Shown here: in pieces, positions 29,179 through 60,218 of the stretch | Numbering within the stretch: the stretch's first letter is position 1 | Layout: every line of letters starts with the position of its first letter | Assembly (NCBI GenBank): GCA_918234285.1 | Contig: CAKJXZ020000003.1 | Span: 70,933-134,932, forward strand | Reading direction: 5' to 3' | Source of the DNA: Pseudomonadota bacterium | GTDB taxonomy: Bacteria; Pseudomonadota; Alphaproteobacteria; RF32; CAG-239 | Length of the DNA stretch: 64,000 bases | Made by a program: the position numbers and the translations under genes | The notes under the pieces: generated by a model | Seen by the model: the letters and a program-made list of their open reading frames with translations, nothing else | The model's database searches: none | Told to the model about the DNA's origin: nothing

Positions 29179-29460
29179 ATGAAAAAAATTACAGTAAAAG
29201 ACATGAGACAAGCCATTGTCTATGTCAACAACGGAAACTATGTCGGCAATCTCAATGACATTACCGACGATGATTTGTTGGCCTGTGACTTCGGCCGCGA
29301 CCTCAATATGGGTAACATCCGCGTTGCCAACGTTGTGATTGAGCTCGAGCGCCGTCACGGTTGGTTGGATATCCCTCAGGAAATGTTCAAGCAGATGCCT
29401 GACAACACGGTCGGTGGCATGTTAGACACTATCAACAAGTGCATCCATGAAAAGGCTTGA
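29179..29460 (+). CDS. ACP-fold-like small protein lacking the phosphopantetheine Ser
   Basis: DFGRDLNMGNIRVANVVIELERRHG..IPQEMF....TVGGMLDTI resembles ACP helix II/III (DLGxDSLD..EL...LEEEF...IP), but no Ser is present. Confidence 0.5.
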   Translation: MKKITVKDMRQAIVYVNNGNYVGNLNDITDDDLLACDFGRDLNMGNIRVANVVIELERRHGWLDIPQEMFKQMPDNTVGGMLDTINKCIHEKA

Positions 29461-29722
29461 ACTCGAGGACGTCCGCACCGCCCTGTACGAAATGAACGTG
29501 CCGGAAGTGCATAACTTTGCGGGAGATGCTCTGCGCAGTGCCGATTTCTGGTTTGATTTGGGTATGGATGAACGCGAAATCGCCTACCTGATTTCAAACC
29601 TGGAGATTGAGAAGAAGGTCAAGATTCCTGTGTATGTTTGGGACAGCCTCAGAGAAAAGAACACGGTGAATGTTCTGATTCACGGGGCCAACGGTCACCT
29701 GATAGATTTGGAAGAAAATTAA
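29447..29722 (+). CDS. ACP-fold-like small protein, Ser replaced by Glu (paralog of the preceding gene)
   Basis: FDLGMDEREIAYLISNLEIEKKVKIP is in exact register with ACP [20 protein letters not shown]. Overlaps the upstream gene by 14 nt. Confidence 0.5.
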   Translation: MKRLELEDVRTALYEMNVPEVHNFAGDALRSADFWFDLGMDEREIAYLISNLEIEKKVKIPVYVWDSLREKNTVNVLIHGANGHLIDLEEN

Positions 29723-29981: not shown

Positions 29982-30084
29982 AAAATCCGTAGAATGAGGT
30001 AAATACGAAGGGGGATTTTGACGACGTGTACACAAATAGTACACGAGGAACCCCCCCAAGTAGTTACCCATTATACGGATTTTT
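29982..30084. repeat. family-A palindromic repeat (full copy)
   Basis: AAAATCCGTAGAATGAGGTAAATACGAAGGGGGATTTTGACGACGTGTACACAAATAGTACACGAGGAACCCCCCCAAGTAGTTACCCATTATACGGATTTT. It ends at the PPIase stop codon. Confidence 0.8.
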
Positions 30085-30689
30085 TAGATGTCGGAGATAA
30101 CGGATATGGCAATAATCTCATCCGGCTCATCAACCATTCCATTCGGTTCGCCGCCTTTTTTAAGCATATCGACATATTCCATACCGGAAGTTACCTCGCC
30201 CCAAACGGTGTATTGACCATCAAGCCACGGACAGTCGGCATAGCAGATGAAGAACTGGCTGTCGGCCGAATCCGGCATCATGGCGCGCGCCATCGAGACA
30301 GTGCCGCGTTTGTGCGGAGTGCGATTAAATTCAGCCTTTAGTTTTTTACCGCTACCGCCGGTACCGTCGCCGCGCGGACATCCGGCCTGTGCCATAAACC
30401 CGTCAATTACCCGATGGAATTTCAGTCCGTTATAAAAGCCCTGTCGCACCAGTTCCTTAATCCGCGCCACATGGTTAGGCGCCACATCCGGCAACATTTC
30501 AATCACAACATCGCCGTATTTGGTTTGCAACAACAAAGCATTATCGGCATCCTTAACTTTATACGAATGTTTGATTTTCTTGGCTCTGGTTTCGCTCATC
30601 GCCAATCTTTTAGTTTCCTTGTTTTCCAAATTTTTAGTAGAAGGTTTGGAAAGATTTTTTGTTTTGTTTTTTTCCAATAAATCAGTCAT
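30084..30689 (-). CDS. ppiB: cyclophilin-type peptidyl-prolyl cis-trans isomerase with a basic N-terminal extension
   Basis: FHRVIDGFMAQAGCPRGDGTGGSG...FFICYADCPWLDGQYTVWGEV. Confidence 0.92.
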   Translation of the reverse strand: MTDLLEKNKTKNLSKPSTKNLENKETKRLAMSETRAKKIKHSYKVKDADNALLLQTKYGDVVIEMLPDVAPNHVARIKELVRQGFYNGLKFHRVIDGFMAQAGCPRGDGTGGSGKKLKAEFNRTPHKRGTVSMARAMMPDSADSQFFICYADCPWLDGQYTVWGEVTSGMEYVDMLKKGGEPNGMVDEPDEIIAISVISDI

Positions 30690-30730: not shown

Positions 30731-31687
30731 TTATTTTGCATTATTCAAGACGTAATCAACTCTTTCTTGCGCCGACAACCCCAGCGGGTAGTGTTTATCG
30801 ACATTTTTGATGACTTCCTTAAGCCCGCGGCAGTTGGCAATCTGAATAGCCAACCCCGGCCGCGCATTAAGTTCCAGCATCATCGGACCGCGGAATTTAT
30901 CCAAAACAATATCTGCGCCCAGATAGCCCAATCCGGTCATTTCATACGCCAACGCACCGATCATCAGATGTTCGCGCCACATCGGCACTTGCAACGTCAT
31001 TAAATCGGCACCGGTATCCGGATGTATGGCAATCGGCATATTGTGCGAAACCGCATTGTTGGCGTGACCGGTACGCATATCCAAACCCACGCCGACGGCT
31101 CCTTGGTGCAAATTGGCTCTGCCGTCGGATTCTTTGGTGGCAAGTCGCATCATAGACATCACCGGATATCCTTTATAAACGATTACGCGCACATCCGGAA
31201 TTCCCTGATAACTGAAATTTTGAAATGCATCGCTGAAGTGCACCAACTCCTCAATCAGCGCCGTGTCATACTGTCCGCCCAAACTGTACAATCCGCTCAA
31301 AATATTGGAAACGTGCTGATACACTTCCTTAAAACCGAGAGTTTTGCCGCTGGCAGTCGTAAATTCATTGCCGGTAAAATGCTTAATTACCAACACACCC
31401 TTGCCCTGGCTGCCGTGCGCCGGTTTAATCACAAATTCTTCATGGCCGGCCACGATTTTCAGCAAATCCTTAACTTCGTACTGGTGCTCAATTACGCCTA
31501 TTTTGTGCGGAGTATTGATGTTGATATTGTCGGCCAGCGTTTTGGTCTGTACTTTATCATCAACCAGCGGATAGAGCGAGCGTTTGTTGTTGCGTCCGAT
31601 AATAAAGAAGTTACGTGCATTCATCCCCAAAACCCCGCGCTCGCGGAATTTTTTCGGATTGGAAAAGATTTTGAAGTAATTCCACAT
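30731..31687 (-). CDS. alpha-L-glutamate ligase-related (RimK-like) ATP-grasp protein
   Basis: GMNARN...YPLVDDK..TK......P...VIKPAHGSQGKGVLVI...LGADIVLD fits the RimK-related ligase family that co-occurs with 7TM/transglutaminase-like proteins. Confidence 0.82.
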   Translation of the reverse strand: MWNYFKIFSNPKKFRERGVLGMNARNFFIIGRNNKRSLYPLVDDKVQTKTLADNININTPHKIGVIEHQYEVKDLLKIVAGHEEFVIKPAHGSQGKGVLVIKHFTGNEFTTASGKTLGFKEVYQHVSNILSGLYSLGGQYDTALIEELVHFSDAFQNFSYQGIPDVRVIVYKGYPVMSMMRLATKESDGRANLHQGAVGVGLDMRTGHANNAVSHNMPIAIHPDTGADLMTLQVPMWREHLMIGALAYEMTGLGYLGADIVLDKFRGPMMLELNARPGLAIQIANCRGLKEVIKNVDKHYPLGLSAQERVDYVLNNAK

Positions 31688-31691
31688 TTTA

Positions 31692-33227
31692 TTATCCCTT
31701 TATCAGCGGTGCAAAGCGTTTCAGTTCAACCAAGCGATAACCGGTATAAGTGCCGAGCTGCATTACCAAAATCAAAATCACGATGTTCCATTCGTTAAAC
31801 GCAAACATAATGTGGCGAATATACGAACTGCTGATAACAAAATAGGTCAGTATCGCCACCACGCAGGTATTGACGATTTGTTTGGTGGCATTGCGCGCCC
31901 CCTCTTCTTCCCAAGTAATCGACGCACGCTCAATAATCCAGGCCGTGATGATTATCGGGAAAAACACCGCCGAAGCCGCAATTCGGAAATTGTATTGATA
32001 GCCCAAAATCGTCAGCATTTGCATAATCAAAATCACAAAAATCACCACCGCCGAAATTCGCGGTACCAACAGCAGGTTAAGCCGCGTCAGCAAGGTACGG
32101 ATTAACAAGCCCAAAGCGATAATCAGCGAAAAGCAAATCAACCCCGACCAAAATCCCGTACGCACCAATGACATCGCCACCAACATCGGCGTAAATGTAC
32201 CCATAGTCGGAATGCCCACCACATTACGCAACAGCACCACCAACAAAATGCCGAGTGGGAAAATCATCAGCCATTTCAAAGTATTTTGTTCCAAATTAGG
32301 CAAATTATAAATCGTATAATCAAACATTTTACTGTTTTCGTATTTGGCACGTTTTCCCGCCATTTTGAACGATGAAACCGCCGCTTGAATTACCGAGAAT
32401 TTTATTTCCGATTTACGCCCACCGACCACATCAAACAGCGATACACCGCCGCGTTGGAACACCACAAAATTTTTCGGCAGACCGGATACGCCGGTTTCGA
32501 TATTATACATCATCCATTTGCTGTTTTCATAAACCTCGAGCATTAAATCGGCCGGTGCTTCTCGCCGTTTTTCCGAAATCTTTACTCCGCGCACAATCCG
32601 TGCCGCAACATTTTTGAACGAAAGCAACTCAATGATTTTCTCGGCCATAATGCGTTGCGATTTTTTTACCGGCAAAAAAGCATCAACTTCCGGCTCCAAA
32701 ATTTCATCATTGAGCAGTTGAATGATTTTCGAGGCATCGGAACCTTCTTTTTTGCTGTCGGCAAGCGCCCAAATTTCTTCCACCATAGCCTGTTGCTGCT
32801 CGCTTGCAAACACCGGCTTTTTCACTTTCGGCTGATTATAATCGCGAATTTTACCGATAACATCTTCATTATCATACAGCATAATGCGATAATAGATATC
32901 CTGCTTATTTTTTTTCGGGCCGGATTTCATAATCATCCGATGATTTTTTTCGTCTTTTTCCACGGTATAGCCTTTGGCAACAACATCTTCGCTCAAAATC
33001 TTATATTCTGCGCCCAGACGCGGCGTAGACAGAGACACCTCAATCGGCTCACCGGTCGGTATAAAAGAGATATGCGCGTCAACCGTCCAAATTTCCGTAC
33101 CTTCACGTGGCTTAAAACTGAATCCCCAATGGGCAATTTTATAATAAGTGGCAAAACCGGCAAATGCTACTGCCAAAACCAAACATATTGCCAAAACACC
33201 CCGTACCGAAAAAATTTTTTTCTTCAT
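31692..33227 (-). CDS. membrane protein: N-terminal inactive-transglutaminase-like domain fused to a 7-TM module
   Basis: A signal or anchor segment, a roughly 300-aa soluble part, then 7 hydrophobic helices (LRNVVGIPTMGTFTPMLVA...). The start at 33227 avoids overlap with the upstream gene. Confidence 0.72.
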   Translation of the reverse strand: MKKKIFSVRGVLAICLVLAVAFAGFATYYKIAHWGFSFKPREGTEIWTVDAHISFIPTGEPIEVSLSTPRLGAEYKILSEDVVAKGYTVEKDEKNHRMIMKSGPKKNKQDIYYRIMLYDNEDVIGKIRDYNQPKVKKPVFASEQQQAMVEEIWALADSKKEGSDASKIIQLLNDEILEPEVDAFLPVKKSQRIMAEKIIELLSFKNVAARIVRGVKISEKRREAPADLMLEVYENSKWMMYNIETGVSGLPKNFVVFQRGGVSLFDVVGGRKSEIKFSVIQAAVSSFKMAGKRAKYENSKMFDYTIYNLPNLEQNTLKWLMIFPLGILLVVLLRNVVGIPTMGTFTPMLVAMSLVRTGFWSGLICFSLIIALGLLIRTLLTRLNLLLVPRISAVVIFVILIMQMLTILGYQYNFRIAASAVFFPIIITAWIIERASITWEEEGARNATKQIVNTCVVAILTYFVISSSYIRHIMFAFNEWNIVILILVMQLGTYTGYRLVELKRFAPLIKG

Positions 33228-33249
33228 TTTCAAAGTCCTTGTAACAAAA

Positions 33250-33753
33250 TTATCCCAACATATTTCTGACCGACACGTCAACTACGGCTCGGTCCTCCAA
33301 AATATTGCGTCCCAACAGCATCTGATACTGAAATTTACTGCGGTCAGCCAATGTAAATTCGGCTTTAAATTTTTCACCGCCCAGTTTCACATCCATTTCC
33401 ACCACCGGTCGCACTTCATCTTTCAGCGCACGCGTAATCGTCGTACTTCTGATAATCGCTTTTTTAAAAGTATGTTTTTCTTGCGTTTCACGATTGATTA
33501 CCACAAAAGAAACCTGTTTTTCTTTCTCGGAAAATTTAATATCAGCCGCATCCAAAGAACAAACTTTTGCCCCTGTGTCAACGCGCGCCAAAAATGCTGA
33601 TTTCAGCGGCGGTAAATAAATATATTCCAACTCGCCAAGCACCATTTTCTCAGTATTGTCGCGCATTTTTTTACCGGCCTCGGCGGATGTCGTTTTTTTG
33701 AAAAGACTTTTTAAAGTTGACAGTATATTGAATGATACTCGCGTTTCGGCCAT
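33250..33753 (-). CDS. retropepsin-like aspartic protease (DUF785 / 'ATP-dependent zinc protease' / RimB-like), cytoplasmic form
   Basis: LGELEYIYLPPL...ARVDTGAKVCSLDA...LLGRNIL..RAVVDVS shows the D-T-G-A signature. No signal peptide. Confidence 0.8.
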   Translation of the reverse strand: MAETRVSFNILSTLKSLFKKTTSAEAGKKMRDNTEKMVLGELEYIYLPPLKSAFLARVDTGAKVCSLDAADIKFSEKEKQVSFVVINRETQEKHTFKKAIIRSTTITRALKDEVRPVVEMDVKLGGEKFKAEFTLADRSKFQYQMLLGRNILEDRAVVDVSVRNMLG

Positions 33754-33763
33754 GGCTTTTCTT

Positions 33764-34300
33764 TTATTTCAGAGTATTTGAAACAGAAACGTCGACAATG
33801 GCACGTCCGCTCAAAATATTGCGTCCGATCAATCCCTGATATTCAAAATCGTGCCGTTCGTTAAGCGTAAACTCGGCCGAAAACGTTTCCTTTCCCATTC
33901 TGACATCCATATTTACCGTAACGCGATGTTCTTCTTCGCCGGTACGTTTAATTTTAACCCGACGCGACAGCGGTTTTTCAAAATCGGCCTTTTCTTTGGT
34001 TTCGCGGTTCACGAGAGTAAACGAAACCCATCTTTGCCCGTCACGTTCAAAGCGTTTTATATTATCCGCATCAATCGATGAGGTAGTGGCACCGGTATCA
34101 ACACGCGCCATAAACGGTGACTTCATCGGCAAAAAATAAATACGTTCAACCGCGCCTATTACATTATTCGGCAGAACTTTCACCACCTTCTCCGGTTGCG
34201 CCGTAGTCGGCACAATCCCCGGAACCACCGCTTCTTCTTTTTTCGCGGCGCATGCCGTCAGCAACATCAAACAACATAAACCACTTAAAATTATTCGCAT
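33764..34300 (-). CDS. retropepsin-like aspartic protease (DUF785/RimB-like), predicted lipoprotein form
   Basis: MRIILSGLCCLMLLTAC lipobox, then IGAVERIYFLPM...ARVDTGATTSSIDA...LIGRNILSGRAIVDVS. It is a paralog of 33250..33753. Confidence 0.8.
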   Translation of the reverse strand: MRIILSGLCCLMLLTACAAKKEEAVVPGIVPTTAQPEKVVKVLPNNVIGAVERIYFLPMKSPFMARVDTGATTSSIDADNIKRFERDGQRWVSFTLVNRETKEKADFEKPLSRRVKIKRTGEEEHRVTVNMDVRMGKETFSAEFTLNERHDFEYQGLIGRNILSGRAIVDVSVSNTLK

Positions 34301-34435
34301 TTTTACCTCGATATTCTTTGATTTTTTATGATAATCATCCTTTTTTCGCCCAATGTAAAACAAAAAAATCAAAAAATACCGACTTATACACATAAGTCGG
34401 TTGATAAGATAAAGGGTTTTTCAGAATGCGCAAAT

Positions 34436-34622
34436 AAAGAAAAGTGTTGTTAAAACAACTGAACGTCATTCTAAGGCATAGCCGAAGAATCCAATCGTTT
34501 TGCAAGAAACGATGTGATGTGTCGCATCACTGGATACTTTCACTTCACTGACGTCCTGTATCAGTATGATGATAAAACAATGTGTTATACAACACAAAAA
34601 ACAACACTTTTTTACTTAAGCC
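34436..34622. repeat. family-B structured element (copy 2)
   Basis: Same termini (AAAGAAAAGTGTTGTT ... AACAACACTTTTTT..TTAAGCC) and framework helices as 29774..29957, but with different internal hairpins. It ends 2 nt from the porin stop codon. Confidence 0.75.
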
Positions 34623-34624
34623 TT

Positions 34625-35767
34625 TCAGAAAAACAAACTTAACCTGAGTGATGTAACCGTAGCGTAATCCGATTTGGTATTAAGCGTAGGATGAATATAA
34701 AATTGAATATCCGGTGTTATCGTCGCCCATTTTGATATACCCCATGCCCAATAAGCTTCCAAAACGTGCTCACCACTTTCTTCAAGCGGAGCTCCCACCG
34801 CCGTCGCGTCAATGTCATTATATGCATACGCCGCACCTATTTGATCAAGTGCATTACGATTAAGCGGATTATTATAAACCATTCCTCCCACATACGAATT
34901 TTTAATGGTGGCGACATTACCGCTCACTCCGTTTATGCGCCCGAACAACGCCCATTTTTCGCCGATGTTTTGTTGCATATTCAAAGACCAACCGGTGGTA
35001 GACTGCGGTTGCTCACGCACATATGGCTGATTATAAATCATTATAGAATATTGCCCGTCACCCCAACCGTTGATATGCGGATTATAGCCGATTTGCCCGA
35101 AGGTAGTATAATGTCCGTCGTGCAGACGATTAAAGCGCACACTTACCGCCGAAACATTGCTGGCATCCTGGGCACCGGCAACAAACAACCAATTTCCGTA
35201 CGTTGCCTGCATATAAGCACCGACACCGGCGTCGGTATAAGTGGCACTGCCGTTTTGCGCCAGCGAATAATTAATGAAATTAACTTGCGGATTATTGTCA
35301 TAATCGGTACCGTCAAAAGCGTACAAAGTATATTGTCCCAACCCCAAAGTCAGCCAATTATATTGCCGCGGCAACTGATATGTATAATACAGCGTTGAAA
35401 ATTCCTGCTCCTCGTCATCGGCATCGTTAATCGGAGTTGCCACACCGATACGATTTTCGATATCATTGGCATCATGGCGACCGTAGAATACGCTGGTATA
35501 AGATGCATTCAAAATACCGGTACCGTAATTATTATCAAAAGTAGTCCAAGCAATACTCGGAGCCAAATACGATTGCACCGCATTATAATGCCCGCTCGGA
35601 GCACCGCGTTGCGGCATAAGCGAATAATTGAGATTATATTGCAAGCCGTATTCTTTTTGCAGATAATTTTTGAAGGCGGTATAATCGGCACTCAAACCCC
35701 CGGCCTCGGCAACCGACATTACTCCGAGAGCTCCGCACAACGTCCCGATAAACAAACTTTTTGACAT
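34625..35767 (-). CDS. OprB-family carbohydrate-selective porin-like outer-membrane protein
   Basis: Signal peptide MSKSLFIGTLCGALGVMSVAEA. The segment ...EAYWAWGISKWATITPDIQFYIHP... fits the OprB pattern. The C-terminus ends in FF. Confidence 0.75.
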   Translation of the reverse strand: MSKSLFIGTLCGALGVMSVAEAGGLSADYTAFKNYLQKEYGLQYNLNYSLMPQRGAPSGHYNAVQSYLAPSIAWTTFDNNYGTGILNASYTSVFYGRHDANDIENRIGVATPINDADDEEQEFSTLYYTYQLPRQYNWLTLGLGQYTLYAFDGTDYDNNPQVNFINYSLAQNGSATYTDAGVGAYMQATYGNWLFVAGAQDASNVSAVSVRFNRLHDGHYTTFGQIGYNPHINGWGDGQYSIMIYNQPYVREQPQSTTGWSLNMQQNIGEKWALFGRINGVSGNVATIKNSYVGGMVYNNPLNRNALDQIGAAYAYNDIDATAVGAPLEESGEHVLEAYWAWGISKWATITPDIQFYIHPTLNTKSDYATVTSLRLSLFF

Positions 35768-35819
35768 TTTATATCTCCTTAATGCTATAAACACTCGGGA
35801 GATATATGCCTTATTTTGA

Positions 35820-35855: not shown

Positions 35856-36278
35856 TTATTTTCGCAACGCCTTGACATAGGCCTGCATGGAATGTTCATC
35901 GCAATAAGTTTGTCCGCTCCGCACTTTTTTACCGCAAAAGCAGAAATCATCATCACGCGGATCGCCAATCGGCCATCTGCAAGTATGACTATCCAAATCT
36001 ACCAACTTTATATTGGTCAGTTCTTCGTTTTTGCGCGGTTCAACAACTTCTTCCACCGATTTTTCTTCTATTTTTTCGATTAAATCAGGTTGCAGAGGCA
36101 ATTCATCGGCTGCGTCTTTGCTCTTAATCGGTGAAGGTCTGGCCGTCAAGCACAAACGATGTACCTTGCCGACAATGGCATTTTTGGTAACACCCAATTT
36201 CTTGGCAATTTCATTTGCCGTCAAACCCTGCGCCCACAACTGACGCAATTTTTCCACGCTTTCGTCTGTCCATCCCAT
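35856..36278 (-). CDS. gcrA: cell-cycle transcriptional regulator GcrA
   Basis: MGWTDESVEKLRQLWAQGLTANEIAKKLGVTKNAIVGKVHRL and the C-terminal CRWPIGDP...FCFCG....YCDEH are canonical for GcrA. Confidence 0.9.
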   Translation of the reverse strand: MGWTDESVEKLRQLWAQGLTANEIAKKLGVTKNAIVGKVHRLCLTARPSPIKSKDAADELPLQPDLIEKIEEKSVEEVVEPRKNEELTNIKLVDLDSHTCRWPIGDPRDDDFCFCGKKVRSGQTYCDEHSMQAYVKALRK

Positions 36279-36403: not shown

Positions 36404-37648
36404 ATGAAAATATTTTACTTTATTCTGGCGTTGCTCATTTGCGCACCGGCGTACGCGCAATACAAAGAATACAATCATTTGTACGAATATAATTTGGATG
36501 AAGAAATTCCGCCGCTGTATCGTTTGGAACGGGAATATAAAAAATCTCATTCCAAATACCGTTGGAATTACGACTTCCGCTGGAATATGTCCAGTCTTTT
36601 CAATTCGGAATTCAAACAAAATATTACCTCTTTCGGCACCAACGAAAAACGCCTATCCAATGCCGATGAAGATGCCATTTTGCGCCAACTCAAAAAAATA
36701 CCGAAACCGTTTTATCAATATATCGGACCACTTATTCATACCATGCGCGGTCTTTCCGGCAAGGTACTCGATTTACCGGGGATTAAGGAAACAAAGCATC
36801 AGTTTCCGACACACATCGCTTCGCGTTTCAAAGACGTTCCGTATATTGAGCTGACCTCGCCGCATTTATATATGTATCTCAATCCGGTTTTGTGGGGAGA
36901 AGACATGGCTTCGATTGAAACGCCGCAAATAGCCAAACAACCGCGCAAAAAACGTCCGCGCGTACGCATTAATCCTGAATTTATGCAAAAAATCAAGGCC
37001 AAAGTGCAGGCCGTTAATTATACTCGCAGAGGCCGCGCCAAAACTGCCGAGCTTGATTTAAGGCATTTCAATCCCGATCGTAACACCCCTCTGTCTAAGG
37101 CCGATGTGCGCGCTTTTGCTCGCACTCTTGACGGATTGGATAACTTCCGCAAAGAAGGTCAACACGAAAGAACTTTAATTATGGTCGAAAGTCTAATGAA
37201 TTATTGGGATGTCAAAAACGGAATCCCGGAAGAAAGTTTGTTGTTCCGACAAATAGTGAATCCTTGCCAGAATTTTGTGCGTAAAATTCAATGGAGCGGC
37301 CTGCAAAGCGAATTCCAAACCGTTATCGGTCAACAAGGGTTTGGCCTGAAAGATTGGGCTTATACCTGTGATAAGGTTGTTAAAGCATGGCGCGTACACA
37401 ACGCCCCGTCTGGTATGATTTGGGCAGCAAAACAACAAAAAAAGGGTGCGGTTTATCCGCTGTTTGAGCCGTTTTTGGTCACACAGCAGGAAAAAACACA
37501 AATGCATTATATTTTAGATTCTTTGGCACGAATGTATACCACCAGAGCAGAAGATATAGATGCCGTAAAGCCTTATAACACCAACCTGAAATACCAGTTT
37601 ATAAAAATGGGTCGACAACTCGCCGGCACCCCGATTATCCGCCAATAG
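36404..37648 (+). CDS. hypothetical secreted protein
   Basis: GAGGAG RBS and signal peptide MKIFYFILALLICAPAYAQ. No family recognised. Confidence 0.65.
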   Translation: MKIFYFILALLICAPAYAQYKEYNHLYEYNLDEEIPPLYRLEREYKKSHSKYRWNYDFRWNMSSLFNSEFKQNITSFGTNEKRLSNADEDAILRQLKKIPKPFYQYIGPLIHTMRGLSGKVLDLPGIKETKHQFPTHIASRFKDVPYIELTSPHLYMYLNPVLWGEDMASIETPQIAKQPRKKRPRVRINPEFMQKIKAKVQAVNYTRRGRAKTAELDLRHFNPDRNTPLSKADVRAFARTLDGLDNFRKEGQHERTLIMVESLMNYWDVKNGIPEESLLFRQIVNPCQNFVRKIQWSGLQSEFQTVIGQQGFGLKDWAYTCDKVVKAWRVHNAPSGMIWAAKQQKKGAVYPLFEPFLVTQQEKTQMHYILDSLARMYTTRAEDIDAVKPYNTNLKYQFIKMGRQLAGTPIIRQ

Positions 37649-41752: not shown

Positions 41753-44509
41753 TTAATCCACACCCAGAACTTCACGACGACCGACGTGGTCTTGTTTTGA
41801 GACAATGCCTTCCTGTTCCATCCGTTCAATCAGATTGGCGGCACGGTTGTAGCCGATACGCAACTTGCGCTGGACATAGCTGGTGGAGGCCTTTTTATCG
41901 GTGCGCACAATTTCAACTGCCTGGCGATATAATTCTTCTTCATCGCTTCCGCCGCCGAATTCGCCCTTATCAAACACCGGACCAGAATCTTTGGTTTCCA
42001 GCTCGCCGGCGGTAACTTCAGCCACATATTTCGGCTCGCCCTGCGATTTGATAAATTCAACCACACGCTCAACTTCTTCATCGGCCACAAAACAACCGTG
42101 AACGCGCACCGGCCGTGTGCCGGACGACATAAACAGCATATCGCCCATACCGAGCAATTGTTCGGCACCTTTTTCACCCAAAATGGTACCGCTGTCGATT
42201 TTGGTGGTAACGTGGAAACTGATGCGGCTCGGGAAGTTAGATTTAATCACGCCGGTAATAACATCAACCGACGGACGTTGCGTCGACATAATTAAGTGAA
42301 TACCGGCCGCACGTGCCATTTGCGCCAAACGTTGAATGGCGGCTTCCACCTCTTTGCCGGCCACCAGCATCAAATCGGCCATTTCATCAACCACAATCAC
42401 AATATACGGCATCGGCGAAGTATCGATAACCTGTTCTTCATAAATCGGCTGACCGGTTTCTTTATCAAAGCCGGTCTGAATGGTTTTTTTCAAGCCCTTA
42501 CCGGTTTTTTGCATTTCTTCGATTTTCTTGTTATAACCGGCAATGTTGCGAACATTCAAGAGTGCCATCTGACGATAGCGATTTTCCATTTCCTGTACTG
42601 CCCATTTGAGGCCGACGACCGCTTTTGCCGGGTCGGTGATCACCGGAGTAAGCAGATGCGGAATACCGTTATACATCGAAAATTCCAGCTGTTTCGGGTC
42701 AATCATGATAAAGCGGCACTGCTCCGGAGTCATCCGGTATAACAGCGACAGAATCATGGTGTTGACCCCGACCGACTTACCGGAACCGGTGGTACCGGCA
42801 ACCAACAAGTGCGGCATTTTGGAAAGGTCGGCATAAACGTGCTGACCGCCGATATCTTTACCCAGAGCTACGTTTAAGATGTTTTTGCTGGTTACGAATT
42901 CGTTATCCTCAAACAGCTCACGTATCCACACGGTTTGCCGTTTTTCGTTAGGCAATTCGATACCGATGGTGCTATGGCCGGCAACAACCGCCATACGCAC
43001 CGAAGATACGGCCATTGAGCGGGCAATATCATCGGAAAGACCGATGACTCGGGCAGTGCGAGTACCGGCTTTCGGCTCAAGCTCATACAGCGTTACTACC
43101 GGACCCGGGCGCACAGCCACGATTTGGCCGTGAATGTTAAAGTCGTTTAATACCTGCTCAAGCTTAGCAGCACGCTCTTTGAGTGCGTTTTCGTCAACCA
43201 CTACCGCACCGGTCTCTTTAGGAACCGAAAGCAGATTAATATCCGGCAGAGTATATTCATGCGGTTGAGATTGCGAACGTGAAGCGGTTTCTACCTGAGG
43301 TACGACCACCTGCGCTGAGGCCGTTGCCGTACGTTGTTCCTGTGGCTGCTGTTTGGTTGGTGTCGGCGCGGTTGTCGGAATATTCAAAAGTTCTTCCTGT
43401 ATAGCGGCCGGTTGGCGACTTGCGGCCTTAGGGGCTGTTTGTTTGGCACCCTCGGTGTGATAAATATCTTCCGGCGATATCTTGGTTGCCGGTTTTTTCT
43501 GCATAACTTGCGGCTCGTTAATAAAATCAAACGTCGGATTAACCGAAGATGTTTTAGAATTTTCGACCGGTGTTACCGAAACCGCAGAAACAGATGCTGT
43601 CGGCGGAGTCGGTTGTTGCAACGTTGCTTGCGGCATAACGATTTTCGGACCGCTTTGAGCTATGTTTTGCGCCGGTTTTTCCGCCAAAGAAGCCAACGCC
43701 GTAGAAGTGTTCAACGCTTGACTGTTCATGGTCGGTTCAATGCGTTCAAACCCCGGTTCGCGCCGTTGATTGATCGTAGCCAATTTATTTTGCATTTTGG
43801 CACGCACATAATTCGGATTAACCTCTTTGAATTCGTTAAAACTGCGAATATGCGCAACTTTCTTAAATATTTTGACGATTGCACGAACAATTTTACCAAA
43901 GAAAGCTGCGATTTTGGAAAGCAGACGCAACCAATATTTAAAGGTAATCCCGGCCGCAAAATTAAATGCCATCAGGCTGATAAACAGCAGCAAAACCAGC
44001 AGAATTATCTTATTGTAAGGCGGCTTTAACAGCGTCAGATAATTCGCATAATTATTGAGAGAAGTACTCAAATGGCGCGACCATTCTCCGGTTAAACTGT
44101 ACGGTAGATTGAAGCGTCCTAAATAATTGCGACAGGTCAAATCAATAAAACCGGCAAAGCTGATAACCCCGACAAACCACGCAAACAGGCGCATTTTCCA
44201 TTCAATAATTTCGCGATGAAAGATTAAACTCAAACCCCAAAGAATCGGCACAATAAGAAACACTATCAGTGCCAAACCGAATGTGCTTAATACAAAATCG
44301 GCGCTGTACGCTCCGAATAATCCCAGAAAATTCTGCACCGGGCGATCATCTGACACGACCTTATTGAGCGACGGATCATCGGCACTATAATCAAAAATTG
44401 CCGCCCAAATTGCCAACGGCAAAATAATCAGAACCGCCCCCACCAGATTGCAAAATATCTTTTTGAACCATGATTCAGATTTTTTATTTTCGTGTATACC
44501 CGATTTCAT
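41753..44509 (-). CDS. ftsK: DNA translocase FtsK
   Basis: N-terminal TM helices, a Pro/Gln-rich linker, Walker [10 protein letters not shown], and a gamma winged-helix domain ...[24 protein letters not shown]. Confidence 0.93.
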
Positions 44510-44787
44510 TTTTTCCTCAAATTAAAGATCTCCTTAATCGCTCGGATTATAGCCGAAAATCCTCAATAAAATGTTAAAAATGCGTAACAGATTATTTTAT
44601 TTTTACGGTTATCGCATTTTTCAAAATGTGTGCCGAGGCAAAAGAGGAATATAACGCCGCGCAGAAGAAAACGGCGGAACGACGGGAAATGCGCCGTAAA
44701 CAAAGAAAGACAAGAAAAATTAACTACACAAGGCTGTAGCCACTTTTTATAAACGCCCGAATCATCCTCGGGCGTTTATTTTTGTTC

Positions 44788-44840
44788 TTCTCCGGTTTAT
44801 ATGGCTCCGCCCAGCATCGACAGTTATAATCCTCCCCGGG
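44788..44840 (-). repeat. conserved toxin block, copy 3 (truncated)
   Basis: Encodes GNPGEDYNCRCWAEPYKPE on the minus strand, then diverges and stops after about 25 codons. Confidence 0.8.
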
Positions 44841-44904
44841 ATTTCCTACGGCTCTTTATGGTATTTTAACTAAACTTTACTATATTAACTTTAGAGGTGG
44901 CAAA

Positions 44905-45720
44905 ATGAAAAAATTTGTTTTGATTTTGGGGTTGTTATTAGTACTTAATTTGCAAACAAAGTTGGCTAAGGGTAACAATCAAATTAATTATGATCATTCA
45001 ACTGATAATAAAAATATAATAAATATAGTGGAAAAATTTAAAACCCTAATAGCCACCAACAATCCGCATATTATCTCCAAATACGTAAAATATCCGTTTA
45101 ATATTGGCGATAATTGTCCGGATATACAAAATAAAGAAGAGTTTGTTCAAAATTTCGATATAATATTTGATTCATTGTTAACAACACAAATTATGGCTTC
45201 TGATATCAATCTATGGAATTTTAACGAAAAACAAAATGTAATTTTTTATGATAGTCCCTATGTTCAATTATCGACAGATGGTTATTTGATGGATATTGAA
45301 TATACTGCAAAACGCACACAAAATAATAAAAAATGTGTATTGGAAGAAAAAAGCAAAATCTATCCTTCTTTAAAGAAATATCAGAAAAATTTATATACAT
45401 TGAAAACTTACGACCATATATATAGAATTGATTTGACTAATAAAGGTTTGAGTGCAACGACATATCGACTGGCAATTTGGAAAAAAGAGCAAAAAATGTC
45501 CGAAAAACCGCTAATAATCATCAATAACGGAAAGTTAAAACTATATGGAAGCGCGAACAATGAGAAATACATCTTTGAAGATAAAGAAATATCTTATATA
45601 GTCGAAATCAACACCGCTCGCGCTTTAGAAACAATTCCTATTGAAATAACCGTTATAAACAATTTTTCAGCAAAAAAATATCCTGCAGTAAATATAACTA
45701 ATAGTCCCAATCTTTATTAG
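44905..45720 (+). CDS. signal-peptide protein, candidate immunity protein for orphan CT 45698..46420
   Basis: MKKFVLILGLLLVLNLQTKLAKG signal peptide and AGAGGTG RBS. Its 5' region is homologous to that of 46554..46979. It overlaps the convergent CT gene by 23 nt. AT-rich. Confidence 0.65.
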   Translation: MKKFVLILGLLLVLNLQTKLAKGNNQINYDHSTDNKNIINIVEKFKTLIATNNPHIISKYVKYPFNIGDNCPDIQNKEEFVQNFDIIFDSLLTTQIMASDINLWNFNEKQNVIFYDSPYVQLSTDGYLMDIEYTAKRTQNNKKCVLEEKSKIYPSLKKYQKNLYTLKTYDHIYRIDLTNKGLSATTYRLAIWKKEQKMSEKPLIIINNGKLKLYGSANNEKYIFEDKEISYIVEINTARALETIPIEITVINNFSAKKYPAVNITNSPNLY

Positions 45721-46504
45721 ATCTAAGCCTTGCCGCAATACTATCATTTCTGCTTTTTCCTACATCTGGCCTAAAACTTTCTTCTATCATTTTATCTAAA
45801 TTTTTTGCATTTACCCATTTTCTGAAACGTACGAATTGCAAGCAATTTCCCGTATTATATTGGAAATCAATAAAAACATCTTGGATAATCGGCGGATATT
45901 TATAAAATTCTGGAATATTATCTTTAATAAATTCGATATCTTTTTCGAGATGCTTTATGACTTTATCCGATATTGTTTCCGAGGATAAATGTATTGAAGA
46001 ATATTTTTTATAAAAAATCGGCAATTTCCCTTTAGGCAAAGATTGTATCTTCTCGTAATTTTTATGTATTTCTGCGAATTGGGCTGGTTTATTATTATCA
46101 TCAAGCCAAGGCATATCACAAAAAACCTCATAATCATCAACGTTTAGACCGGCACCTACGGTTATATATCCCTTAGTATCTTTATATGGATAATCAACAA
46201 TACCTTCTTCTTTTATAATTTGAGGAACATTACGTAATATTATTGTATCCACATTAAGATCATTATTGCTTGATGGCTTTCTTTCATACCCTGCGTCGGT
46301 TGCCACATTTGCTTTATCATTAGCGGCGTATTGAGGTAGACCATTAAGCTTGAAATCAACCAGCTTAAGTGTTTTTTGCAGCTCTTTAAACATATCAAGT
46401 CCGCTGACATCTATAATCATCGGCTTATCGGCATATCTTTCCGGTTTATACGGCTCCGCCCAGCATCGACAGTTGTAATCCTCCCCCGGATGCCCGCCGG
46501 TTAT
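45698..46504 (-). CDS. orphan polymorphic-toxin C-terminal cassette: MuF NCRC remnant, conserved linker and a GH24 (T4-type) lysozyme-like domain
   Basis: The first ATG is at 46420, but the frame is open from 46504 (just after a TAA) and encodes TGGHPGEDYNCRCWAEPYKPERYADKP. EEGIVDYPYKDTKGYITVGAG carries the E-x8-D-x5-T lysozyme triad. Confidence 0.7.
   Translation of the reverse strand: MTGGHPGEDYNCRCWAEPYKPERYADKPMIIDVSGLDMFKELQKTLKLVDFKLNGLPQYAANDKANVATDAGYERKPSSNNDLNVDTIILRNVPQIIKEEGIVDYPYKDTKGYITVGAGLNVDDYEVFCDMPWLDDNNKPAQFAEIHKNYEKIQSLPKGKLPIFYKKYSSIHLSSETISDKVIKHLEKDIEFIKDNIPEFYKYPPIIQDVFIDFQYNTGNCLQFVRFRKWVNAKNLDKMIEESFRPDVGKSRNDSIAARLRSNKDWDY
46292..46492 (-). repeat. conserved toxin block, copy 2 (201 nt)
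   Basis: Near-identical to 47652..47852. Encodes HPGEDYNCRCWAEPYKPERY...VDVSGLDMFKELQ...VDFKLNGLPQYAANDKAN.A.DA. Confidence 0.85.
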
Positions 46505-46553
46505 TTATTGTATTTTAACGAAACTATGCTATATTAACCCCAGAGGTATAAAA

Positions 46554-46979
46554 ATGAAAAAGTTTATTTTGATTTTAGGATTTTTATTAACATTGAGTAA
46601 CCGTTCATACTCTCAAAGCTCATCTGAGAAACAGCAAGAGTTTGTTAATCCTATTTTTAACAAAACATTGTATGGTTACAGCAAGCAAACTTGGAACACC
46701 CAACTCTCTCCAAGCAGTATTATAGCATCTCCTGATAATCTTTCAGATCCGAATGCTTATATAGAGCAATATCCTTGTGAACTGTTGGAAAATAAACACG
46801 ACCATGTAAAATTCAACTGCACTATTTGTTATGGATATTTATCTAAATTAGAAGCTAAAGATTGTTACCATGATATTATCATATACCAAATAACTACTGA
46901 TGGTAAAATAAAAGAAACAACCTTTAATCCTAAACGCCCAGAATTTCAAAGTATTGAATATTTAATCACAAAACCATAA
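46554..46979 (+). CDS. signal-peptide protein, candidate immunity protein for CT 46980..47891
   Basis: MKKFILILGFLLTLSNRSYSQ signal peptide. Its stop codon directly abuts the stop of the convergent toxin gene. The mature part is unrelated to 44905..45720. Confidence 0.65.
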   Translation: MKKFILILGFLLTLSNRSYSQSSSEKQQEFVNPIFNKTLYGYSKQTWNTQLSPSSIIASPDNLSDPNAYIEQYPCELLENKHDHVKFNCTICYGYLSKLEAKDCYHDIIIYQITTDGKIKETTFNPKRPEFQSIEYLITKP

Positions 46980-47891
46980 TCACCACCGTTTTATAGATAA
47001 TATTTTATCTTTCATCTCATCATTTCTATCTTTCGAGATGCCTTTTCTATGAACTTGCTTTGCCAATTCGGGAACATTTTTCTCATTGAAATATTGTTTA
47101 AAATATGTCCAAGTATTATCCGTAATTCCCGGATTATATTGAATATCAAAAGCAACATCTTGTGCTGCTTCCGGCGCATAATCTATGTCAGGCAGATAGT
47201 GTTTAAGGTTGCTGTAGTCCCGTTGTAAATGCGAATACATCAAATAATCAGCTTCATCTTCAGTTATGTTGAGGACAGCATCTTGCTCATATCTCTTTGC
47301 AGTAATTTTTTGAAAAGGATTCAAATAAGGTTTTTTGCTTTTTTCGGCTTCTGCTTTTGCTTGTGCAATAATCTTTGCTCTCACTTTTTCCATTCGTTCA
47401 AATTCCGCACGCATTTCATCTTCGGTTGCCGGCCTACCATTATATAGCCAATGCACTTTTCTAAAACTTTCCCAGTCATTAATTAAAGCTCCATTACCTG
47501 TTGTTATATAACCTGAACTATCCAAATAAGCATATTCCTTTGTATTTTCTCTTGCAATAATTTGTTTTCCAATTCGTTTTAACAACTTTTCCTCTTCAGG
47601 TGAGCGGAATTCTACTTTGCGATGTGCGTATGCAGAATTTGAAGTATACGTTGCATCGCTTGCCATATTTGCTTTGTCGTTTGCGGCATATTGCGGCAAG
47701 CCATTAAGCTTGAAATCAACCGGTTTCATTTCTGATTGCAACTCCTTAAACATATCAAGTCCGCTGACGTCTACAATTACCGGCTTATTCTTATATCTTT
47801 CCGGTTTATATGGTTCCGCCCAGCATCGGCAGTTATAATCTTCACCCGGATGCCTCTTGCTTTGTAAATTCTTGCTGCACTTCGTTTGCAA
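46980..47891 (-). CDS. MuF C-terminal motif, conserved linker and GH24 lysozyme-like toxin domain (3' part of a disrupted MuF-toxin gene)
   Basis: TTG start directly after a TGA. HPGEDYNCRCWAEPY, then RENTKEYAYLDSSGYITTGNG (E-x8-D-x5-T), with a T4-lysozyme-like C-terminal lobe (DVAFDIQYNPG...SKDRNDEM). Confidence 0.7.
   Translation of the reverse strand: MQTKCSKNLQSKRHPGEDYNCRCWAEPYKPERYKNKPVIVDVSGLDMFKELQSEMKPVDFKLNGLPQYAANDKANMASDATYTSNSAYAHRKVEFRSPEEEKLLKRIGKQIIARENTKEYAYLDSSGYITTGNGALINDWESFRKVHWLYNGRPATEDEMRAEFERMEKVRAKIIAQAKAEAEKSKKPYLNPFQKITAKRYEQDAVLNITEDEADYLMYSHLQRDYSNLKHYLPDIDYAPEAAQDVAFDIQYNPGITDNTWTYFKQYFNEKNVPELAKQVHRKGISKDRNDEMKDKILSIKRW
47652..47852 (-). repeat. conserved toxin block, copy 1
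   Basis: See copy 2. It lies inside ORF 46980..47891. Confidence 0.85.
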
Positions 47892-47940
47892 TCATTAACT
47901 GCGCTTCGGTCACTCGTTTTGTAAATTCGCCACGCGTCGT

Positions 47941-48333
47941 TTACACTAGCTTGCTTATTAACAAAACTTCGCCGCTTGCGGTAAAAACAACCGGAGCAAT
48001 GGTTGTTTTTATCCTCGCGCCATCCGGTGGCACATGCCAATTAAAAATTTCACCTTCACGCTCGGCGTGTTTGCCGCGAACTCGGTCGTCGCGCTTTGTC
48101 CGCCAGATATAATAATCTTGCGGATTTTTATCCATATCGTCCGCCAAAATTGCCTTTAATCGCGGGTTGGGTGAGTTTTCGTTGGCCACGTCAATTTGAC
48201 TGTACGGGTCATTACTCCGATACCGCGGGTCAACATAATACCACTCGCTTTGTCCTTGCTTTTTATATCCTCGTTTTACACTCTTAAACCCGTGCAACCG
48301 CTGATACAGATTATTTTTTTCGCTATTCTGCAT
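47941..48333 (-). CDS. MuF-domain (phage head-morphogenesis-like) N-terminal fragment
   Basis: YYIWRTKRDDRVRGKHAEREGEIFNWHVPPDG matches the core of the Phage_Mu_F pattern (W..D.R.R..H...G..F). It ends at a TAA that looks premature. Confidence 0.7.
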   Translation of the reverse strand: MQNSEKNNLYQRLHGFKSVKRGYKKQGQSEWYYVDPRYRSNDPYSQIDVANENSPNPRLKAILADDMDKNPQDYYIWRTKRDDRVRGKHAEREGEIFNWHVPPDGARIKTTIAPVVFTASGEVLLISKLV

Positions 48334-48896: not shown

Positions 48897-49511
48897 TTAT
48901 CTGGAGTAGTATTCGATAACCAAATTCGGCTCCATAACAGCCGCATAAGGCACATCTTCAAACTTCGGAATGAAGGTGTAAGTTGCCTTCATCTTTTTGG
49001 CATCAACTTCCAAATATGTCGGCCAATCACGAGTTTGCGATTCGAGAGCATTGATAACCATATTCATACTCTTGGACTTTTCGCGAACTTCGATAACATC
49101 GCCGGCCTTGACCATATAAGACGGAATGTTTACTTTTTTGCCGTTAACGGTAACGTGGCCGTGGTTTACAAATTGACGAGCCGCAAATACGGTCGGTACG
49201 AATTTTGCTTTATAAACCAGGTTATCCAAACGGGATTCGAGCAAACCGATTAAGTTTTCGGCGGCATCGCCAGAACGACGAATAGCCTCAGCATAATATT
49301 TACCGAATTGCTTTTCGGAAATGTTGCCGTAGTAAACTTTCATCTTTTGTTTGGCAATCAATTGTTGACCGTAGTCGGTAACTTTTGCTTTTCTTTGACC
49401 ATGTTGTCCCGGACGATATGATCTTTTGTTAAACGGGCTGTTATTATCACCCCAGAGATTGTCGCCGTAGCTACGGCTCAATTTTTTCTTTGCAGAAACG
49501 ATACTTTTCAT
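48897..49511 (-). CDS. rpsD: 30S ribosomal protein uS4
   Basis: Canonical S4 (..RPGQHG.....SDYG.QL..KQK......E.QF...Y...). Confidence 0.95.
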
Positions 49512-59877: not shown

Positions 59878-59905
59878 TTGATATTTTTAAAAGAATCTCT
59901 ATATT
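59878..59905 (+). promoter_or_regulatory. candidate ssrA promoter
   Basis: TTGATA at 59878..59883, a 16-nt spacer, then TATATT at 59900..59905. Confidence 0.45.
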
Positions 59906-59911
59906 ATGAAT

Positions 59912-60218
59912 CGTCAGGCAACTGACTGTGACACCAGAGGCCTTATGAAATAGGTACGTCGGACCCGAGGGCAGTACTCGGCACCTCCACCATTTTACGG
60001 GGGTGAAACAGGATTGACGGTGTATAGTAAAGATATGTGTTGTGTCCGGTGAGATACCACCGTTATCGGTTCAAACTAAATAAACGCAAATGATAATTTT
60101 GCACCTGTTGCCGTTGCTGCGTAATGCGGTAAATGCAACGAATTTCAATTCTTTGAGCTTTGGTTAGCTTAAAGTGGGGAGTGAGCCGCCCAGCAACAGA
60201 ACGGCTCGTTTGATTTTA
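59912..60218 (+). ncRNA. ssrA: circularly permuted (two-piece) tmRNA
   Basis: The acceptor piece ends ...CACCTCC-A-CCA at 59992. After a 6-nt spacer the coding piece starts GGGGGTGAAACAGGATTGACGG at 59999, and G3 pairs with U (the alanine identity element). The tag ORF GCA AAT GAT AAT TTT GCA CCT GTT GCC GTT GCT GCG TAA (60086..60124) encodes ANDNFAPVAVAA. A terminator hairpin lies at 60183..60207. Confidence 0.85.

Follow-up and report, generated by a model that had tools for sequence, protein, structure and literature searches.

An rloA-rloB-rloC operon with a lipoprotein RloA and an additional signal-less RloA-type protease in an uncultured rumen/gut alphaproteobacterium

The 64,000-nucleotide stretch of contig CAKJXZ020000003.1 analysed here (the window) contains a cluster of four genes that is the rloA-rloB-rloC operon of an uncultured rumen/gut alphaproteobacterium. 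Its RloA is a lipoprotein, and an extra RloA-type protease without an export signal is inserted between rloA and rloB in one narrow lineage. The identity of the operon follows from the Pfam and NCBIfam matches of its proteins, from the matches of its proteases to the crystal structures of RloA, and from a gene order and spacing like those of PA1768-PA1767-PA1766. The account that we favor as probable takes two statements jointly: that a periplasmic RloA limits the product of RloB and RloC, and that the extra copy is a cytoplasmic enzyme resembling RimB.

The rloABC operon was named and characterised genetically and structurally by Lormand et al. (mBio 2025, PMC12239564). In Pseudomonas aeruginosa it consists of PA14_41690/41710/41730, which are PA1768-PA1767-PA1766 in PAO1. 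The P. aeruginosa proteases RloA, RloA2 and RloA3 are secreted retropepsin-like dimers, for which the structures 9g58 and 9g59 were solved; RloA cuts stretches of at least 8 consecutive Glu in vitro, and its natural substrate was not found. Deletion of all three proteases is lethal in salt-free (hypo-osmotic) medium; cell shape, biofilm and beta-lactam tolerance are also impaired. This triple mutant is rescued when rloB or rloC is deleted as well, and the rloB and rloC single mutants are far milder than it (PMC12239564). The cytoplasmic relative RimB trims poly-Glu and raises the ATPase activity of RimK about fourfold (PMC11957791, PMC7343187).

The initial annotation of the window, made from the sequence alone, had recognised the gene families and called the module functionally unsolved, an association noted by comparative genomics only. 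The latter statement is outdated by the 2025 characterisation of rloABC and by the NCBIfam models that exist for RloA, RloA2, RloA3, RloB and RimB. The former is true in part: the genetics and the in vitro specificity of the protease were published in 2025, and the remark of the initial annotation that it knew of no identified substrate or product still stands. The gene association itself reportedly goes back to the comparative genomics of Iyer et al. in 2009, as cited in PMC12096838.

Identity of the operon and possible transcripts

The four open reading frames (ORFs) lie on the minus strand in the order rloA, signal-less copy, rloB, rloC, at the coordinates given by the initial annotation (Table 1). 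They are co-oriented and tightly packed, as it had said, with spacers of 10, 22 and 4 nt from rloA to rloC. Profile models bear out its family assignments for all four proteins: PF05618 matches both proteases, PF14400 and PF14402 match the membrane protein, and TIGR02291 matches the ATP-grasp enzyme. The order, orientation and spacing are therefore those of rloA, rloB and rloC with one extra gene inserted. The window proteins do not reach the curated NCBIfam cutoffs for RloA, RloA2, RloA3 and RloB; these models are of the "equivalog" and "exception" types, and their cutoffs lie far above the scores reached.

For transcription, four metatranscriptome runs were compared with the region. An identical contig of 254 nt lies inside rloC at 31403–31656. 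A contig of 251 nt from an rRNA-depleted metatranscriptome matches the signal-less copy at 33414–33664 with 4 mismatches.

The lipoprotein protease RloA

RloA starts with MRIILSGLCCLMLLTAC. It has the lipobox LLTA↓C with Cys17, which upholds the earlier call of a lipoprotein, and a ribosome-binding site, GAGG, lies 7 nt upstream of the gene. The catalytic D68 is found in RVDTGAT; both proteases carry the retropepsin signature that had been noted, as RVDTGA(T/K). The protein thus combines the export signal, DTGA motif and PF05618 domain of the RloA of rloABC. Among the NCBIfam models RloA3 matches best, with 107.7 bits (cutoff 210). Sequence matches in the PDB are 9g58 and 9g59, the Pseudomonas RloA and RloA2, and 2pma. 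The gene is the orthologue of the single rloA in each of the 78 related loci with sequence upstream of rloB, and its dN/dS between the window and L002, a close relative, is 0.025.

A disulfide-forming Cys pair is reported to be conserved in the periplasmic orthologues (PMC12239564). The mature domain of the window RloA has no Cys after C17, and the position of C102 in 9g58 is occupied by Arg, so the pair is absent here.

The signal-less copy

The ATG of the second protease gene lies 10 nt past the rloA stop, behind a weak ribosome-binding site. Its catalytic D59 is found in RVDTGAK. No hydrophobic, transmembrane (TM) or signal segment was found in the protein. Because the stop-to-stop frame opens just 5 codons before M1, a hidden signal peptide is excluded as well, and the earlier placement of this protease in the cytoplasm holds.

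The signal-less copy shares with RimB the lack of a signal peptide. It scores 54.7 bits with the RimB model NF052261, for which at least 200 are required, and 79.8 bits with RloA3, and its neighbors are rloA, rloB and rloC rather than rimK. Judged from these scores, it derives from the RloA branch and not from RimB.

The AlphaFold2 (AF2) model of the signal-less copy has a core, residues 34–163, with a predicted local distance difference test score (pLDDT) above 90. Residues 1–33 are lineage-specific and probably disordered. An amphipathic anchor at residues 4–18, with a hydrophobic moment of about 0.5, was considered and rejected, as AF2 shows no helix there and a pLDDT of about 36. The first 40 codons have no match beyond the orthologues (tblastn and blastn-short against all 89 loci), and homology to rloA picks up again at about codon 44. 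A Foldseek search ranks 9g58 RloA first (E 4.5e-10), followed by Legionella 2pma, 9g59 RloA2 and then HIV-1 protease.

The residues named for Pseudomonas RloA were mapped through the 9g58 chain; the assumed offset of +20 reproduces all nine named identities. The catalytic D48 is kept in both proteases, as D68 in the lipoprotein and D59 in the signal-less copy. R92, R114 and R137 are also kept in both, and K46 is Arg in both. K95 and K97 are Lys in the lipoprotein and Thr in the signal-less copy. Both protease cores are basic, with a pI of 9.2–9.3.

The membrane protein RloB

RloB starts with MKKK followed by a TM anchor at residues 5–23, a loop of 297 residues, seven more hydrophobic helices and a positively charged C-terminus. 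The initial annotation had described a transglutaminase-like domain and seven TM helices. Both are present, and the N-terminal anchor brings the number of helices to eight. The AF2 model (pLDDT 82) agrees with this hydropathy layout. The NCBIfam model of RloB, NF052267, gives 267.5 bits against a cutoff of 900, and the match runs end to end, residues 12–510 on model positions 8–507.

The periplasmic domain, residues 24–320 or thereabouts, has a transglutaminase-like fold and matches 3isr, a transglutaminase-like putative cysteine protease, with an E value of 1e-8. RloB has three Cys residues, C15, C365 and C455; each lies in a TM segment, and none in residues 24–320. RloB therefore lacks the catalytic Cys of an active transglutaminase or cysteine protease. 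With PF14400, PF14402, a Cys-free domain and a 3isr-like fold, it has the properties of the inactive transglutaminase of rloABC. A fold search with the 7TM domain gave no significant match among solved structures.

The motif E-R-x-S-I-x-W-E-E-x-G at residues 433–443 is invariant or nearly so down to homologues of 30% identity, including those of other phyla. Helix counting and the positive-inside rule would place it at a cytoplasmic turn. The dN/dS of RloB, window against L002, is 0.021. A Shewanella mutant of the rloB homologue over-produces membrane vesicles.

The ATP-grasp enzyme RloC

RloC scores 413.7 bits with TIGR02291, above the cutoff of 314.2, and belongs to the alpha-L-glutamate-ligase-like ATP-grasp family of rloABC. 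It has no TM segment. The models of RimK give much lower values, 25.6 bits for NF007764 (cutoff 331) and 40.6 bits for TIGR00768 rimK_fam (cutoff 143.4); the enzyme is thus not an ordinary RimK, in line with the initial annotation. Its glycine-rich loop and its R-x-N-L-H and E-x-N motifs align with the RimK structures 7qys and 4iwx, and apart from these motifs it is marginally similar to any solved structure, with E values of about 1e-4. RloC has a dN/dS of 0.018 in the same comparison with L002.

Conservation of the operon

In a scan of one genome per species, 303 species encode a relative of RloB, and the gene layouts were read for the 80 best matches. These are all from gut/rumen Alphaproteobacteria, with RloB identities of 56–98%. 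The closest genome records are rumen metagenome-assembled genomes (MAGs) labelled Alphaproteobacteria; in RUG13901, RloB is 98% identical as protein, with a DNA identity of about 92–94%. Beyond this clade the RloB family comprises 1058 clusters at 50% identity (E ≤1e-10).

In all 80 related loci rloB is followed by rloC; in the 78 whose contig extends far enough, rloB is always preceded by a PF05618 gene. These counts show that the gene set occurs far beyond chance, and they confirm co-conservation in relatives, the lack of which would have spoken against the initial annotation. A lipobox is present in every single-copy rloA with its 5′ end on the contig (77 of 77). The porin, GcrA and cyclophilin genes on either side are likewise common to most related loci, so the whole neighborhood is syntenic.

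Seven distant RloB homologues were examined in their genomic context. At six of these loci, from Microbulbifer, Lentisphaerota, a deltaproteobacterial MAG, Oceanicoccus and two others, one protease gene is followed by rloB and rloC, and all of the proteases carry a signal peptide or a lipobox. The Woeseiaceae locus has rloB and rloC without an adjoining protease. In a distant genome, L086 (3449–3994), the rloA adjoining rloB has DSGA in place of the DTGA active site.

With a dN/dS of about 0.02 for RloB and RloC, the rlo operon is a fixed and strongly constrained feature of a large uncultured rumen/gut alphaproteobacterial clade.

Distribution, origin and selection of the signal-less copy

Among the 80 related species the signal-less gene is found in L001 and L002 only. 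In L003, whose RloB is 95% identical, rloA is directly followed by rloB. The gene is absent from all seven distant loci sampled. Its carriers are the window, L001, L002, L088/L089 and X30, a contig from a bovine-gut metagenome with the entire four-gene arrangement. A database of 5.8 billion proteins contains three close clusters, one being that of the window itself and two at 82% identity; one of the latter was inspected and has the same four-gene layout. The next matches, at 62% identity, are ordinary lipoprotein RloA proteins.

The signal-less copy is 54% identical to the adjoining RloA and 60–63% identical to the RloA of a sister lineage (L025, L021, L022). A neighbor-joining tree places it on a long branch, basal to the RloA clade of gut Alphaproteobacteria. 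An old duplication, a transfer from a relative and fast divergence would all give this picture and appear indistinguishable as its origin. A side observation on the family is P0159 of Shewanella khirikhana, a single chain of 290 aa in which two retropepsin domains are fused into a pseudo-dimer; duplication is therefore recurrent in these proteases. Some gammaproteobacterial members among the matches of 245–290 aa have a signal peptide.

The five copies examined are all intact at 167 codons, with no stop or frameshift, and differ by up to 17% in protein sequence. The dN/dS is 0.145 overall, 0.12 in the core and 0.22–0.42 over the first 35 codons. Of the start codons, the first ATG is conserved but the internal one picked by the gene caller is not. 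With intact copies, a dN/dS well below 1 and a conserved start, the gene is under purifying selection and is not in decay.

Between the window and L001 (5475–5978) the signal-less gene is 98.8% identical in DNA, with a dS of 0.027, and the flanking genes are 88–95% identical, with a dS given as 0.30–0.37 and also as 0.18–0.72. The low dS points to a recent gene-sized recombination patch between the two lineages.

Comparison with known systems

The window cluster resembles the P. aeruginosa rloABC in its three families and in their order, orientation and tight spacing. The window proteases also keep the Arg residues predicted to bind poly-Glu and the basic substrate channel. The differences are several. 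The host is an alphaproteobacterium, whereas the published work stresses Gammaproteobacteria. RloA is a lipoprotein, lacks the disulfide pair and has flaps about 10 residues shorter, and the scores fall below the narrow NCBIfam cutoffs for RloA and RloB. A fourth gene, the signal-less RloA paralog, lies inside the operon. P. aeruginosa also has extra paralogs, RloA2 and RloA3, but these are secreted and encoded elsewhere in the genome.

In RimB-RimK of Pseudomonas, with or without RimA, a retropepsin-like endopeptidase of the cytoplasm works together with a glutamate ligase of the ATP-grasp type, and the signal-less copy beside RloC repeats this compartment logic. It differs in that the protease is of the RloA branch, its ligase would be RloC instead of RimK, RimA is absent and a link to S6 is not known. 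Lpg0085 of Legionella pneumophila (DUF785, PDB 2pma) has the same fold (Foldseek E 2.4e-9, target-normalised TM-score 0.80), but it is 27% identical and is a structural-genomics entry without assigned function. The retroviral HIV-1 PR and Ddi1 have the same type of aspartic protease fold, homodimeric and single-lobed with D-T-G-A. Their identity is about 12%, and the bacterial enzymes differ from them in longer flaps, a non-interdigitated beta-sheet platform and a channel that is basic, not hydrophobic.

What is new is the rumen/gut alphaproteobacterial host clade, the lipid-anchored RloA and the rare four-gene variant. The system itself was described in 2025; beyond these points the finding is an annotation update. 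As the variant is confined to a handful of close rumen lineages, the general picture of the system is unchanged. The matter is of interest because in Pseudomonas the rlo system bears on cell shape and biofilm formation as well as on tolerance of beta-lactams and survival under osmotic stress.

Proposed function and alternatives

A model can be proposed in which RloC, in the cytoplasm, builds an acidic chain, probably of poly-glutamate, that is free or attached to a carrier. RloB would be needed for the action of this product at or beyond the inner membrane, as an exporter, a scaffold or a carrier, and its Cys-free transglutaminase-like domain may bind the product in the periplasm without catalysis. 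The RloA dimer, anchored in the periplasm, would cut the chain and hold its level below the threshold at which it harms the envelope. For the signal-less copy we infer a role like that of RimB, as an enzyme of the cytoplasm that trims or regulates what RloC makes. Derived from RloA, with an intact active site and a cytoplasmic location, it would most simply act on the same chemistry before export. As a working enzyme that meets the same kind of substrate there, it would trim the product and possibly stimulate or reset RloC, as RimB does for RimK, giving a second, inner control point. If the signal-less enzyme acts on the RloC product, this product must be accessible to a protease, and is presumably poly-Glu, before it reaches RloB. 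The signal-less copy would then be a natural experimental handle on the product of RloC.

The initial annotation had favored another use of the same parts, in which the module makes, exports and matures a useful poly-amino acid or peptide, with the proteases as maturation steps, one on each side of the membrane. The split between compartments is real, one protease being a lipoprotein and the other signal-less; both keep the catalytic and the main substrate-binding residues, and an ATP-grasp enzyme adjoining a membrane protein fits synthesis followed by export. However, the rescue of the P. aeruginosa protease mutant by deletion of rloB or rloC is the pattern expected from removing a harmful product, and argues that the protease removes or limits the product of RloBC. 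Processing on two sides, which had been deduced from the duplication, can apply to the window lineage, but it is not intrinsic to the system, the cytoplasmic copy being missing in 78 of 80 related species and in 7 of 7 distant loci. A short precursor, which it was proposed to look for, is not encoded nearby: the window has no precursor ORF and no encoded acidic stretch, none of its ORFs of at least 30 aa containing 5 or more consecutive D/E, and the porin-to-rloA gap, about 60–110 nt in most relatives, leaves too little room for a conserved small ORF. Maturation of a useful product is thus unlikely. A signal-less copy that has no function or is decaying towards loss would account for its very narrow distribution, its weak ribosome-binding site, the lost export signal and two lost Lys contacts, and a dN about 10 times that of the neighbors (0.10 against 0.01) with an omega 5–7 times higher. 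This explanation seems improbable, as it conflicts with five independent copies that have diverged by up to 17% in protein without a stop or frameshift, with an omega well below 1 both overall and in the core, with DTGA, R57, R102, R115 and R138 being invariant or nearly so in the family alignment, with a confidently predicted fold and with a transcript-derived contig on the gene.

Other explanations assign a different role to RloB or RloC. RloB may serve as a sensor or scaffold. Its periplasmic pseudo-enzyme domain would read a cue from the envelope, such as a peptidoglycan peptide, to control RloC in the cytoplasm, and the proteases would act on targets specific to each compartment. Several observations agree with this: the 7TM domain matches no solved transporter, the Cys-free and hence non-catalytic periplasmic domain is transglutaminase-like, the near-invariant E-R-x-S-I-x-W-E-E-x-G loop, if cytoplasmic, could be a docking site, and the phenotypes in Pseudomonas mainly concern the shape of the cells and their sensitivity to beta-lactams. 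Such a sensor leaves the epistasis between a periplasmic protease and a cytoplasmic ligase unexplained unless something crosses the membrane, and we regard it as possible though doubtful. A more speculative thought, very unlikely in our estimate, is that RloB itself is the acceptor of RloC, with the E433–G443 loop being glutamylated and the signal-less protease serving as a cytoplasmic eraser. RimK extends the Glu-Glu end of S6, and the TTLL ATP-grasp enzymes branch from an internal Glu, offering analogies for such a loop. If true, the four-gene version would be a complete circuit of writer, carrier and two-sided eraser. Finally, the genes could be an ordinary RimK/RimB pair for poly-glutamylation of S6 placed beside a membrane protein. 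The homology in this direction is weak, with 37.6 bits of RloC to PF08443, an E value of 8e-5 to 7qys and 54.7–59.6 bits of the proteases to the RimB model NF052261. With the RimK models far under their cutoffs and TIGR02291 above its own, both proteases scoring higher on the RloA than on the RimB models, and an invariant link with RloB, there is hardly any chance that this is correct. A role in anti-phage defence was also considered and dropped, as none of the four proteins matched a PADLOC model.

Some observations weigh against a periplasmic RloA limiting the RloBC product together with a RimB-like cytoplasmic copy. No product of RloC has been reported in any organism, and its being poly-Glu is deduced solely from the in vitro specificity of RloA. 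Both window proteases lack the disulfide pair of the periplasmic orthologues and have the shorter flaps, so that their specificity could differ from that of the Pseudomonas enzymes. The equivalents of K95 and K97 are lost in the signal-less copy. Its faster non-synonymous change fits relaxed constraint as well as a new role. Because the 7TM domain of RloB resembles no solved transporter, a sensor or scaffold role is equally possible for it. No rimK or rimB gene lies within the window, which is a part of the genome. The RNA support consists of two short intragenic contigs for which DNA carry-over is possible, and no contig of the four runs crosses a gene junction.

Flanking features

The operon is separated from an upstream porin gene by a terminator-like hairpin, which sits in a gap of 324 nt that extends from the stop of the porin gene (34625) to the start of rloA (34300). 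In the X30 contig the stretch corresponding to 34414–34624, just upstream of the hairpin, is deleted; this stretch is therefore dispensable and without a conserved small gene. The OprB-family porin gene is kept upstream of rloA in most of the clade. On the other side, the cyclophilin gene follows rloC in most of the 80 related loci and in none of the seven distant rlo loci. It is a syntenic neighbor that may be co-transcribed with the rlo genes, and it is probably not part of the rlo system.

Table 1. Features of the rlo region and their coordinates in the window
Feature	Coordinates	Strand	Remarks
rloA, lipoprotein-type secreted retropepsin-like aspartic peptidase	33764..34300	-	178 aa; PF05618 105.7 bits
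Signal-less rloA paralog	33250..33753	-	167 aa; PF05618 96.5 bits
rloB, inner-membrane inactive transglutaminase-like and 7TM protein	31692..33227	-	511 aa; PF14400 86.8 bits, PF14402 271.5 bits
rloC, cytoplasmic ATP-grasp protein, alpha-L-glutamate-ligase-like	30731..31687	-	318 aa; TIGR02291 413.7 bits, PF14397 279 bits
Promoter-like site, TTTACA, 17 nt, GATTAT	34331..34359	-	consensus match alone, 9/12 positions; about 30 nt upstream of rloA start
Terminator-like hairpin	34378..34401	-	10-bp stem then T-run; ends porin gene, separates porin from rlo genes
OprB-family porin	34625..35794	-	best NCBIfam model is chlamydial arginine/agmatine porin AaxA, 273 bits, below cutoff of 600
Cyclophilin-type peptidyl-prolyl isomerase (PPIase)	30084..30689	-	PF00160; 41 nt downstream of rloC

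Other observations in the window

Two tandem overlapping ORFs of 93 and 91 aa, 29179–29460 and 29447–29722 (+), have the cyclophilin gene on one side and the mraZ end of the dcw cluster on the other. They are paralogous (25% identity, E 6e-7) and have no Pfam match. An ORF of 414 aa at 36404–37648 (+) is divergent from the adjoining gcrA; it has an apparent signal peptide and no Pfam match.

The GC content is 0.34–0.36 at 44000–48000 and 0.42–0.49 in most of the remaining window. The ORFs 44905–45720 (+), 45698–46420 (-) and 46980–47891 (-), between ftsK (41753–44509) and rpsD (48897–49511), have no Pfam match. The low-GC stretch may be a foreign island.

GcrA is encoded at 35856–36278. A permuted two-piece tmRNA, with the tag peptide ANDNFAPVAVAA, is located at 59900–60215 (+). 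An alphaproteobacterial host fits the presence of both GcrA and the two-piece tmRNA.

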